DNA of 64,000 nt from Escherichia coli (GTDB lineage: Bacteria; Pseudomonadota; Gammaproteobacteria; Enterobacterales; Enterobacteriaceae), in NCBI RefSeq assembly GCF_011045215.1, contig NZ_CP049201.1; one strand, 5' to 3'. Positions within the stretch are counted from its first letter, which is position 1. Each line of letters opens with the position of its first letter. The position numbers and the translations under genes were made by a program. A model generated the notes under the pieces. It was not told the DNA's origin. It did not search any database and saw nothing but the letters and a program-made list of their open reading frames with translations. Shown here piece by piece: positions 5,139 through 51,334 of the stretch.

Positions 5139-5687
5139 TCACGTTACACAATACGCATCAATGGACGCTGAGTAGTTCGCGAGTTTTAAACTTCCAACGT
5201 CCGCTTTTCGCTCAAAGCGGACTAGAAGGTTAGCTTGTATCGGACTTTGCGTATTAAATGACTAGTGGTTGAGCCCCATTTCCACAGAAAAAATCAGAGA
5301 AACTATACCCAATAGTTGTATTGAATCACTGACGAGACAGCCTCATATTCATCAGGACTGGTGTACGTCCAATACAGGAGGTTGTGGTGCTGGTTCTCAA
5401 ATGTGCGCTGGCTATTACGGCTGTAATGGCGATTTATTGTCTTGCTATTGTTCTTATGGATCGCCTTTCTGACTGATTTCATATTGGCGAGGTAACGGTA
5501 GTTAAGTAGAATGGCTGCGGGTGCTTGAGGCTATCTGCCTCGGGCATGAACACCAACGGCAGATAGAGAAAAGCCCCAGTTAACATTACGCGTCCTGCAA
5601 GACGCTTAACATTAATCTGAGGCCAATTTCATGCTAGACACATGTAGGTTAGCCTCTTACGTGCCGAAAGGCAAGGAGAAGCAGGCT

Positions 5688-5843
5688 ATGAAGCAGCAAA
5701 AGGCGATGTTAATCGCCCTGATCGTCATCTGTTTAACCGTCATAGTGACGGCACTGGTAACGAGGAAAGACCTCTGCGAGGTACGAATCCGAACCGGCCA
5801 GACGGAGGTCGCTGTCTTCACAGCTTACGAACCTGAGGAGTAA
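5688..5843 (+). CDS. hokD: Hok/Gef-family type I toxin (HokD/RelF-like), 51 aa
   Basis: Translation MKQQKAMLIALIVICLTVIVTALVTRKDLCEVRIRTGQTEVAVFTAYEPEE matches recalled HokD; in-frame upstream extension from 5631 is mok-like; sok antisense expected ~5600..5700 on minus strand. Confidence 0.85.
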   Translation: MKQQKAMLIALIVICLTVIVTALVTRKDLCEVRIRTGQTEVAVFTAYEPEE

Positions 5844-36728: not shown

Positions 36729-37309
36729 TGGCATTCAGAATGAGTGAACAACCACGGACCATAAAAATTTATAATCTGCTGGCCGGAACTAATGAATTTA
36801 TTGGTGAAGGTGACGCATATATTCCACCTCATACAGGTCTGCCAGCAAACAGTACCGATATTGCACCGCCAGATATTCCGGCAGGCTTCGTGGCTGTTTT
36901 CAACAGTGATGAGGCATCGTGGCATCTTGTTGAAGACCATCGGGGTAAAACGGTTTATGACGTGGCTTCCGGCGACGCGTTATTTATTTCTGAACTCGGC
37001 TTATTACCGGAAAATGTCACCTGGTTATCCCCGGAAGGGGAGTTTCAGAAGTGGAACGGCACAGCCTGGGTGAAAGATGCAGAAGCAGAAAAACTGTTCC
37101 GGATCCGGGAGGCGGAAGAAACAAAAAACAACCTGATGCAGGTAGCCAGTGAGCATATTGCGCCACTTCAGGATGCTGTAGATCTGGAAATCGCAACGGA
37201 GGAAGAAAACTCGTTGCTGGAAGCCTGGAAGAAGTATCGGGTGTTGCTGAACCGTGTTGATACATCAACTGCACCTGATATTGAGTGGCCTGTAATACCA
37301 GAAGTTTAA
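36728..37309 (+). CDS. tfa: Tail fibre assembly protein (lambda Tfa-like)
   Basis: 193 aa; TAATG overlap with stf; followed by hairpin agcccgc...gcgggct at 37316..37345. Confidence 0.8.
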
Positions 37310-48814: not shown

Positions 48815-49705
48815 ATGATCAAGAAGACAACGGAAATTGATGCCATCTTGTTAAATCTCAATAAGGCTATCGATGCCCACTACCAGTGGCTGGTGAGTAT
48901 GTTTCACAGCGTGGTCGCGAGAGATGCCAGTAAGCCAGAAATAACGGATAACCATTCTTATGGACTGTGCCAGTTTGGTCGGTGGATTGATCATCTGGGG
49001 CCACTCGATAACGATGAATTACCTTACGTTCGGCTAATGGATTCTGCCCATCAACATATGCATAACTGTGGTCGGGAATTAATGCTGGCTATTGTTGAAA
49101 ATCACTGGCAGGACGCGCATTTCGACGCCTTTCAGGAGGGGTTGCTTTCTTTTACTGCGGCATTAACCGATTACAAAATTTATTTGCTGACGATCCGTAG
49201 CAATATGGATGTTTTGACGGGATTGCCGGGTCGTCGGGTTCTTGATGAATCCTTTGATCATCAGTTACGCAACGCTGAGCCTCTGAATCTTTATTTAATG
49301 TTGTTGGATATTGACCGATTTAAATTGGTTAATGATACCTACGGGCATTTAATCGGCGATGTAGTATTACGCACCCTGGCAACTTACTTAGCCAGTTGGA
49401 CGCGTGATTACGAAACGGTTTATCGCTACGGGGGCGAAGAATTTATCATTATTGTCAAAGCGGCTAATGATGAAGAAGCATGTCGTGCAGGTGTCAGAAT
49501 TTGCCAGTTAGTCGATAACCATGCCATCACACATTCTGAAGGGCATATCAACATTACCGTGACAGCAGGTGTCAGTCGCGCATTTCCTGAAGAGCCTCTG
49601 GATGTGGTCATTGGAAGAGCAGACCGGGCAATGTATGAGGGTAAGCAAACCGGAAGAAATCGCTGCATGTTTATTGACGAACAAAATGTGATTAACCGAG
49701 TTTAA
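48815..49705 (+). CDS. dgcZ: Zinc-sensing diguanylate cyclase
   Basis: N-terminal MIKKTTEIDAILLNLNKAIDAHYQW (CZB domain) and RYGGEEF GGDEF active site. Confidence 0.85.
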   Translation: MIKKTTEIDAILLNLNKAIDAHYQWLVSMFHSVVARDASKPEITDNHSYGLCQFGRWIDHLGPLDNDELPYVRLMDSAHQHMHNCGRELMLAIVENHWQDAHFDAFQEGLLSFTAALTDYKIYLLTIRSNMDVLTGLPGRRVLDESFDHQLRNAEPLNLYLMLLDIDRFKLVNDTYGHLIGDVVLRTLATYLASWTRDYETVYRYGGEEFIIIVKAANDEEACRAGVRICQLVDNHAITHSEGHINITVTAGVSRAFPEEPLDVVIGRADRAMYEGKQTGRNRCMFIDEQNVINRV

Positions 49706-49744
49706 GCTCCGTTTAACATTCATTGAGAAAACTGATGCTACTGT

Positions 49745-49850
49745 GTCAACGATCCGTTATCAGTGCAGGAAAATGCCTGTTAGCGTAAAAGCAAAACACA
49801 AATCTATCCATGCAAGCATTCACCGCCGGTTTACTGGCGGTTTTTTTTTC
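49745..49850 (+). ncRNA. mgrR: Candidate MgrR-like sRNA ending in terminator 49821..49850
   Basis: Intergenic region downstream of dgcZ, divergent context with mgtS; strong hairpin caccgccgg-ttta-ctggcggt followed by nine T; recalled MgrR lies at this locus. Boundaries approximate. Confidence 0.35.
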
Positions 49851-49924
49851 GCCGTCATAAAAATCAGGCCCCTTGTACACAACTGTAACAAGGGGCCGGT
49901 TAGGTGAGGGATTATCTCCGTTCA

Positions 49925-50020
49925 TTAGTCATCCCATTTGTGGCTGAAATACGCGGCCAGAAAACCAGAAAATAAAATTATTCCCAGTACGGCCATAAAA
50001 ACATTCATATTACCCAGCAT
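49925..50020 (-). CDS. mgtS: Small membrane protein MgtS (YneM), 31 aa
   Basis: Reverse-strand translation MLGNMNVFMAVLGIILFSGFLAAYFSHKWDD; terminator hairpin ggccccttgt...acaaggggcc at 49866..49900 on minus strand. Confidence 0.65.
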   Translation of the reverse strand: MLGNMNVFMAVLGIILFSGFLAAYFSHKWDD

Positions 50021-50146
50021 TATTTGCCTCCGTTTATGGTGTGGTGTGTTTCCTCGCTTACCTTAATTTTTATCTCAATGAGAAAGATATTAGCAGAGGT
50101 AACCTAAACGAAGGCTGAATTAAATTTTTATTGTGTTCGACTTAAA

Positions 50147-51334
50147 TCAACAAAGCGCGGGCTGCCCCCACGGTTTTGCACGAATCCCTTTTAACATCAG
50201 CACCCACGCAGCAATGATCACCAACGCTAAGATGATAAACAGCGAGGAAGGCGGCAGGCTGGTTAGCACTACGCCACTCACTAATGGGTTAATCGCGGCA
50301 CCAAGCCAGCCTAAAGACTGGGCGGAAAAATAGCTGGCTTTCATTCCTGGCGGCGCAATATGGTCAATCAACATATACTCGCCCGGCGCATAAATGATTT
50401 CACCGACAGTAAATACCGCAGCTGACATACCCCACAATAGCAGGCTGTTGCCGGAAAAAATAAAACCGACCAGACCGATGACGAAACAGAGGGTGCCAGC
50501 TGTCATCAGCGCGCGGATGTTAGCCGGGTTAAGGCGGCGGCCCACGGAATATTGCAACGTAACCACCATGGCAGCATTCACCGGAAGAACAACCGCGACC
50601 ACCTTTTCGGCAAAATCCCCATCAGCAATCACCATCACATATTGTGAAATGCATGATGCAAATGCGCCGCTAACAAAAGAAGCCAGAAAGCCAGAGCAGG
50701 TAAACCACAACAGTGCTTTATCTTGTAATAAAACTTTCGGCGACCAGACACTGCCTGTTTCCGTGGCGATGATTTTCTCGCTGCGCTTTACCCAAATTTG
50801 AATGAAAAGCATGGGAAACGCGGAACAGATAGCTGCCAGCCAAAAGGGCAGATTGATGCTCTGCATCACCAACAGCGTGCCGAGCGGCGGACCGATGGTC
50901 CAGCCAATGTTGAGCATGGTGTAGTTGATTGAGAAGATTTTCGTTTTGCTGGTGGACGAAAGATTGTCGGCAAACCAGGCTTTCAACACGGTAGCAAAAA
51001 CGGAATAGGCGCAGTTAATGAGGGCAAAAAAGAGCACCACCAGCGTTACGTTATTCACTAAAGGAATGGCAATAAAACCGCTGGCGAAGGCGGTAATTGC
51101 CAGTAACATATAGCGTTTCTTGTCGAACTTATCCGCCAGGATACCAAAACCGAGGCTAAAAACGACGCCAATAGTGAGCGCAATTGTCATCGCATAACCG
51201 ATTAGATCGACACTCAGGCTGTACTGGCGACTCAAGTAAATGGTCATAAATGGCAGCGTAGCGCCGCGTCCGATGGTTAATAACAATGACGAGGCAAGAA
51301 GGGCGCTGGTAGAGCGTCGTAGGGATAAGTTCAT
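50147..51334 (-). CDS. ydeE: MFS efflux transporter
   Basis: 395 aa, 12-TM-like hydrophobicity; gene order. Confidence 0.85.
   Translation of the reverse strand: MNLSLRRSTSALLASSLLLTIGRGATLPFMTIYLSRQYSLSVDLIGYAMTIALTIGVVFSLGFGILADKFDKKRYMLLAITAFASGFIAIPLVNNVTLVVLFFALINCAYSVFATVLKAWFADNLSSTSKTKIFSINYTMLNIGWTIGPPLGTLLVMQSINLPFWLAAICSAFPMLFIQIWVKRSEKIIATETGSVWSPKVLLQDKALLWFTCSGFLASFVSGAFASCISQYVMVIADGDFAEKVVAVVLPVNAAMVVTLQYSVGRRLNPANIRALMTAGTLCFVIGLVGFIFSGNSLLLWGMSAAVFTVGEIIYAPGEYMLIDHIAPPGMKASYFSAQSLGWLGAAINPLVSGVVLTSLPPSSLFIILALVIIAAWVLMLKGIRAKPWGQPALC

Follow-up and report, generated by a model that had tools for sequence, protein, structure and literature searches.

The mgrR–mgtS–mgtT interval between dgcZ and ydeE of an Escherichia coli genome: a known low-Mg2+ locus with one added T that reframes mgtT

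The small RNA MgrR of E. coli is a 98-nt transcript that is induced by PhoQP and binds Hfq by way of a U-tail and an ARN motif, and its seed, which runs from U55 to A68, pairs with eptB and ygdQ and represses both (PMC6239178). In addition to these two mRNAs, pitA has been reported as an MgrR target (PMC11429745). The genes mgrR and mgtS undergo convergent, PhoPQ-dependent transcription (10.1101/2021.06.30.450655), and mgtS forms an operon with mgtT that is likewise dependent on PhoQP (PMC11429745). MgtS raises MgtA levels and intracellular Mg2+ (10.1101/2021.06.30.450655), and it is reported to stabilise MgtA and to bind PitA (PMC11429745, 10.1101/2021.06.30.450655). In Salmonella, an Hfq-enriched RNA of ~90 nt termed STnc560 has been described in the ydeI/ydeE interval, where it is convergent with the yneM (mgtS) mRNA STnc570 of ~190 nt (PMC2515195). 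A more general point of comparison is provided by the class II Hfq-dependent small RNAs such as ChiX, in which a single-stranded seed is accompanied by an internal ARN or A-rich motif that contacts the distal face of Hfq and a 3′ U-tail that contacts its proximal face (PMC6239178).

The DNA considered here is a 64,000-nt stretch of an E. coli genome (hereafter the window), for which a sequence-only reading had proposed mgtS and a candidate MgrR between dgcZ and ydeE; both elements were found at or very near the positions given there. We conclude, with a probability of about 0.96, that the dgcZ–ydeE interval is the known E. coli PhoQ/PhoP low-Mg2+ locus, consisting of two convergent transcription units with MgrR on the plus strand and mgtS-mgtT on the minus strand. 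The identity of the locus, its coordinates, its structure and the conservation of its motifs are observed in this window (Table 1), and the assignment of dgcZ and ydeE as the flanking genes is borne out by NCBIfam equivalogs and PGAP alike. Specifically, the 601-nt stretch from 49600 to 50200 is matched at at least 95% identity in 5,416 of 5,426 complete E. coli genomes, and at least 80% of its length is covered at that identity in 5,409 E. coli records (5,407 of the 5,426 genomes). The annotation beneath the matched stretch reads dgcZ, mgtT, mgtS and ydeE, and strain PapM-32-1 is 100% identical across all of 49600..50200.

The closest characterized counterpart is that of K-12 MG1655, in which mgrR (b4698), mgtS (b4599) and mgtT (b4775) are arranged exactly as in the window, with the same order, strands and spacing (RefSeq NC_000913.3: ncRNA mgrR 1622817..1622914, mgtT 1622741..1622845, mgtS 1622646..1622741; mgrR and mgtT overlap by 29 nt). 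MgtS is 100% identical between the two, as are the PhoP-box and −10 elements of both promoters. Alignment of window positions 49690..50150 (461 nt) with K-12 yielded only four differences (Table 1), one of which gives the window a U9 run in MgrR and a 59-aa mgtT frame, whereas K-12 has U8 and a 34-aa mgtT. Relative to Salmonella, the flank differs, in that the table of the original report lists ydeI (PMC2515195) where the window has dgcZ. The components of the mgrR–mgtS–mgtT locus are thus all known biology, and the only feature specific to this strain is the homopolymer length that reframes mgtT. The locus is a textbook case in which PhoQ/PhoP controls a small RNA and a small protein side by side, and it holds little significance beyond its correct annotation; what is gained there is the exact position of MgrR, of the two promoters and of the overlapping mgtT gene.

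Two kinds of E. coli record depart from this picture at the level of the 601-nt match. The records NZ_LR134092.1 (NCTC10444) and NZ_LT795502.1 (KV7) have an annotated IS1 transposase within the dgcZ-ydeE stretch, and their match consists of two parts that together span 1,377 nt. For O157:H7 strains, the alignment reaches only to query position 521, and ydeE is absent from the annotation listed beneath it.

Table 1. Features of the dgcZ–ydeE interval and differences from K-12, in window coordinates
Feature	Position	Strand	Basis or detail
dgcZ (diguanylate cyclase) CDS, left flank	48815..49705	+	NCBIfam NF007380, 521.9 bits (cut-off 256); PGAP call at matching position in PapM-32-1
mgrR PhoP-box region	49699..49726	+	three half-sites 11 nt apart: AGTTTA 49699..49704, CGTTTA 49710..49715, CATTGA 49721..49726
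mgrR extended −10, TG-C-TACTGT	49736..49744 (hexamer 49739..49744)	+	12 nt past CATTGA
MgrR small RNA	49751..49849 (99 nt; 98 nt in K-12)	+	Rfam STnc560; RefSeq mgrR coordinates
MgrR 5′ stem-loop	49755..49785	+	minimum-free-energy fold and Rfam consensus structure
MgrR seed (target pairing), nt 55-68, preceded by an A-rich/ARN stretch	49805..49818	+	PMC6239178; unpaired in fold
MgrR intrinsic terminator and Hfq-binding tail (predicted)	49822..49849 (stem 49822..49841; T-run 49841..49849, 9 T)	+	terminator scan and fold
mgtT reading frame, 59-aa ORF here	49746..49925	-	translation and K-12 alignment
mgtS intrinsic-terminator-like hairpin	49857..49897	-	minus-strand fold; 13-bp G+C-rich stem 49897..49867, then UGAUUUUUAU to ~49857
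mgtS CDS, 31-aa hydrophobic small protein MLGNMNVFMAVLGIILFSGFLAAYFSHKWDD	49925..50020	-	ORF list; NCBIfam NF033842
mgtS Shine-Dalgarno GGAGG	50027..50031	-	6 nt upstream of ATG, read from sequence
mgtS promoter (predicted)	50087..50121	-	PhoP box AATTCA-GCCTT-CGTTTA 50121..50105, 12 nt, −10 TAATAT 50092..50087
ydeE (MFS efflux transporter) CDS, right flank	50147..51334	-	NCBIfam NF007472, 799 bits (cut-off 582); PGAP
Difference 1 from K-12	C49754 (K-12: T)		MgrR nt 4, C for U
Difference 2 from K-12	one added T in run 49841..49849		MgrR U-run of 9 against 8
Difference 3 from K-12	T50071 (K-12: C)		mgtS 5′ UTR
Difference 4 from K-12	T50126 (K-12: C)		upstream of mgtS PhoP box

With respect to the small RNA, a whole-window Rfam scan placed STnc560 (RF01407) on the plus strand from 49717 to 49931; the score of 277.5 bits (E = 2.2e-63) exceeds the gathering score of 55, and the covariance model of the Salmonella RNA fits the window from end to end (model positions 1-214). 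A literature search found no paper naming both STnc560 and MgrR; we take the two to be the same RNA, as general background has it and as their position and sequence at this locus indicate. Counted from the dgcZ stop, K-12 mgrR corresponds to 49751..49849, the two differing by a single substitution and an inserted T (97 of 98 nt matched), and if the 5′ end is placed at 49751, the published numbering of the 98-nt RNA (G41, U55, A68 and the 3′ U8; PMC6239178) falls on the correct bases. The plus-strand region of ~100 nt picked out in the sequence-only reading is therefore MgrR, 99 nt long here, and both Rfam and the K-12 alignment place it on the claimed strand and in the claimed position, with no conflicting placement.

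The Rfam family is considerably longer than this RNA, as its 214 nt begin with 34 nt of promoter sequence and extend 82 nt past the terminator. It is scarcely credible that the functional RNA is this full span (49717..49931) rather than the 99-nt MgrR, as the end-to-end match to the model and its inclusion of a second strong hairpin (49867..49897) are set against a first 34 model positions that constitute a promoter with a conserved −10, a canonical terminator with U9 that ends the RNA at 49849, and the nature of the second hairpin itself, which has no U-run on the plus strand and is the mgtS terminator read backwards. On Northern blots the Salmonella RNA runs at ~90 nt (PMC2515195) and that of E. 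coli at 98 nt (PMC6239178), and the RefSeq entry is also 98 nt long; we therefore reject the Rfam span as the transcript and take the RNA to be the central ~98 nt.

Folding of this 99-nt MgrR gave a 5′ hairpin, an open centre and the terminator (−25.9 kcal/mol, z = −2.6). The terminator, which had previously been placed at 49821..49850, was located by the terminator scan at 49822..49849 with a stem of 8 pairs (6 of them G-C) and a loop of 4, the end of the T-run at 49849 being a small correction. In an RNAalifold consensus of 20 MgrR homologues, 7 terminator pairs were kept, one of which shows a compensatory A-U/G-C exchange in 7 of the 20 sequences. Only the terminator was recovered from these 20 sequences, and we attribute the missing 5′ hairpin to a variable 5′ third that is poorly aligned by MAFFT. 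MgrR of the window contains the sequence modules expected for Hfq binding: its Rho-independent terminator ends in a U-tail, and an A-rich/ARN motif is present internally. These are the motifs of the class II small RNAs, although targets and regulators differ between these RNAs.

In terms of target recognition, pairing was computed with the eptB sequence of K-12, eptB itself lying outside the window, and with the single-stranded centre of MgrR only. The resulting core duplex joins approximately nt 54-68 of MgrR to positions −6..+9 of eptB, across the AUG, and its total energy of −20.5 kcal/mol was only modestly better than chance, in that 33 of 1000 shuffled targets and 77 of 1000 shuffled small RNAs did as well. 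An unconstrained duplex between full-length MgrR and eptB was long and meaningless, performed no better than shuffles (53 of 500), and was discarded.

Upstream of mgrR, the sequence-only reading had pointed to a GTTTAA sequence as a possible PhoP-box half-site. That motif is present, but it is not confined to a half-site: it belongs to a full direct repeat, AGTTTA-AGCTC-CGTTTA (49699..49715), which starts just left of 49706 and fits the PhoP-box pattern (T/G)GTTTA-N5-(T/G)GTTTA at or near the −35 position. The TAA stop of dgcZ (49703..49705) overlaps the first half-site. The pattern GTTTA-N6-GTTTA at 49700..49715 is the single match in the 64-kb window, where 0.08 would be expected and where 8 of 100 shuffles had one. 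The hexamer of the extended −10 ends 7 nt before the annotated 5′ end of MgrR at 49751.

Comparison of aligned enterobacterial loci revealed that these elements are unequally conserved. The level is at least 95% for the GTTTA at 49711..49715, at least 60-95% for CATTGA (49721..49726) and at least 80-95% for the TG together with the T, A and final T of TGnTAnnnT (49736..49744); conservation of the upstream GTTTA (49700..49704) is found mainly within Escherichia. The most conserved promoter arrangement is accordingly CGTTTA-N5-CATTGA (with ACATT as the spacer here), 12 nt and TAnnnT. In the alignment the downstream pair of CGTTTA and CATTGA is the conserved one, and it is on the strength of conservation that it would be the choice of PhoP among the three half-sites. 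A strict PhoP-box regular expression applied across genera matched in Escherichia only, and the review PMC4651636 says nothing on the PhoP box. A consensus sigma-70 scan found neither the mgrR nor the mgtS promoter, both lacking a −35 consensus, which is the expected outcome for activator-dependent promoters without a −35 element.

The cross-genus comparison was based on 34 loci that an exact-pattern search for 22 nt from the centre of MgrR yielded among species-representative genomes, so that seed conservation among the 34 is circular, the seed being the query, and it is the flanks that are informative. Record titles assign the loci to Escherichia, Salmonella, Citrobacter, Enterobacter, Kosakonia, Phytobacter, Pluralibacter, Lelliottia, Huaxiibacter and a Raoultella MAG. 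The gene mgtS is adjacent to MgrR and convergent with it in 30 of these loci; of the remaining four, one ends just past MgrR. The loci from Lelliottia (L020), Huaxiibacter (L034) and Citrobacter amalonaticus (L030) contain MgrR with no mgtS found in the examined locus, and the convergent pair is therefore not universal.

Several individual loci in this set are unusual. That of Enterobacteriaceae bacterium RIT691 (L011:1310-3136) has two MgrR copies on the same strand, 1.6 kb apart, which score 84 and 59 bits with Rfam; one copy adjoins mgtS, the other keeps the canonical GTTTA/CATTGA/TAnnnT promoter, and the two are separated by a pair of ORFs (127 and 177 aa). Two contigs with non-enterobacterial titles, a 'Caldithrix' MAG contig (L006) and one labelled 'Chryseobacterium sp. 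18061' (L033), nonetheless carry an enterobacterial mgrR-mgtS pair, and the MgtS, MgtT and MgrR sequences of the former are identical to those of E. coli K-12. Contamination or mis-binning is the likely origin of both.

On the minus strand, the 31-aa ORF noted in the sequence-only reading is MgtS, as it matches the NCBIfam equivalog NF033842 over residues 1-31 of 31 with 80.6 bits against a cut-off of 35, and PGAP annotates mgtS in identical or near-identical records. The protein is identical to WP_000901367.1, as annotated in PapM-32-1 and K-12. The hairpin proposed as its own terminator is likewise present, in the form of a 13-bp stem followed by UGAUUUUUAU in the minus-strand fold. The 121 nt of this strand from 49810 to 49930, which include the antisense of the MgrR terminator, fold with z = −3.98 (0 of 200 shuffles as good), and the arms of the mgtS hairpin are conserved across genera. 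A simple terminator scanner missed this hairpin on the minus strand, which we attribute to its bulge.

The mgtS gene also has a predicted PhoP-box promoter of its own, which did not feature in the sequence-only reading. Its geometry is the same as that of mgrR, in that the half-site ends 12 nt upstream of a TAnnnT hexamer. In those segments from distant genera that reach this far, the mgtS box again shows TAAAC, which is GTTTA on the opposite strand, together with CTGAAT; per-column conservation is uninformative here, as most fetched segments stop short of the region. Two further observations concern the sequence upstream of mgtS. The PIRT-seq study proposes an additional 'CDS58' upstream of mgtST (PMC12350097), and the minus strand between ydeE and mgtS (50021..50146) contains no ORF of at least 20 aa in this window. 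A consensus scan also detected a terminator-like hairpin on the minus strand at 50156..50172, inside the 3′-terminal codons of ydeE, whose stop lies at 50147.

Building from these elements, the locus would be expected to operate as follows. A PhoP-box promoter without a −35 consensus would drive Hfq-dependent MgrR, which would pair with target mRNAs and repress them, eptB across its start codon, with ygdQ and pitA as further reported targets. A second PhoP-box promoter would drive the mgtS-mgtT mRNA, from which MgtS would be made as an inner-membrane protein that reportedly lifts levels of the Mg2+ importer MgtA and acts on PitA. Translation of mgtT would start on the mgtS stop and cross the mgtS terminator hairpin, and a K-12-type frame would end antisense to the MgrR terminator. 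The regulation itself is drawn from the literature, and control by PhoP, Hfq and target pairing would presumably run unchanged in this strain.

The third known gene of the locus, mgtT, overlaps both mgtS and mgrR and was missing from the sequence-only reading. Its ATG (49925..49923) overlaps the mgtS stop out of frame in the sequence TAATGA (49927..49922). The K-12 protein is 34 aa long (MNGDNPSPNRPLVTVVYKGPDFYDGEKKPPVNRR, with the C-terminus …GEKKPPVNRR) and would end at window position 49820, that is, within the MgrR terminator and antisense to it, which accounts for the 29-nt overlap in K-12. In the window, the homopolymer has a ninth A/T, owing to which the frame changes after codon 28 (K28) and a 59-aa ORF antisense to all of mgrR results; the 34-aa K-12-type C-terminus is not encoded. 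PGAP labels mgtT 'frameshifted' (pseudogene) in PapM-32-1. Neither the K-12 nor the window form of MgtT matched any model in an NCBIfam scan, no MgtT model existing there, and the assignment to MgtT consequently rests on position and alignment. A single-base homopolymer difference thus alters an mgtT that is annotated as a pseudogene, and MgrR and MgtS should stay intact.

As to what mgtT does, we lean somewhat towards the view that it is a translated but functionally dispensable by-product ORF, in which case the frameshift would be without consequence and the label 'pseudogene' merely a matter of annotation. K-12 MgtT was found by ribosome profiling (10.1101/511675), was confirmed by PIRT-seq (PMC12350097) and has been detected by epitope tagging as well (10.1101/511675, PMC12350097), which speaks against a dispensable product, yet neither deletion nor over-expression of mgtT resulted in a phenotype (PMC11429745). 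The overlapping ATG is present in all 30 mgtS-bearing loci, yet the length of the ORF that follows ranges from 8 to 83 aa and is 30-34 aa in Escherichia only. From the cross-genus comparison, conservation of mgtT therefore seems confined to its start, which bears on whether mgtT is a functional gene. The first ~12 residues, MNGDxPxPNRPL, are fairly conserved and would count in favour of function, though the same stretch encodes the hairpin. Maintenance of the 8-T allele in ~91% of E. coli records also argues against dispensability, and the lack of an NCBIfam model for MgtT is in keeping with it.

Dispensability is further supported by the mgtS terminator, as the hairpin and its U-run (49897..49857) lie inside mgtT over codons 10-23, ending near codon 23. 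Transcripts that end at this hairpin would leave full-length MgtT, whether of 34 or 59 aa, dependent on read-through, and the ~190-nt yneM transcript of Salmonella is compatible with termination at this site.

Finally, we considered the origin of the ninth T. A 70-nt query centred on the run (window 49811..49880) found exact 9-T matches in 264 records, or ~5% of complete E. coli records, and exact 8-T matches in 4,927 E. coli records (~91%). Homopolymer length is a typical error of long-read assemblies, and some of the 9-T calls may be such errors. One assembly labelled K-12 MG1655, NZ_CP032667.1, carries the 9-T 70-mer where the reference NC_000913.3 has 8 T, which suggests a homopolymer error or a laboratory variant in that assembly and calls for caution with allele counts. 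By the same reasoning, the ninth T at 49841..49849 could be a sequencing or assembly error, the true sequence of the strain being the K-12 allele with its 34-aa mgtT intact. We consider this unlikely, given that the 264 exact 9-T records come from strains of several hosts and countries and that natural T-runs in other genera range from 7 to 9, with 9 in Salmonella diarizonae and Lelliottia. The natural occurrence of U9 in other genera also leads us to expect that the longer tail should leave MgrR unharmed.

At the opposite extreme, the 9-T/A allele might be a real, recurrent polymorphism by which the 34-aa mgtT product is exchanged for one of 59 aa, its translation running antisense through all of mgrR; a similarly long mgtT frame exists in Salmonella arizonae and some Citrobacter. 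We hold this to be very improbable. Were the 59-aa MgtT translated, it would constitute a homopolymer-controlled variant of an Mg2+-stress small protein and would imply substantial read-through of the mgtS terminator, and hence antisense overlap with MgrR.

Elsewhere in the window, the Rfam scan reported two other plus-strand matches. One, at 5519..5693, is to the sok antitoxin RNA of a hok/sok type I toxin-antitoxin system (115 bits against a gathering score of 59), and the other, at 37071..37269, is to IS009 (227.6 bits against a gathering score of 117).
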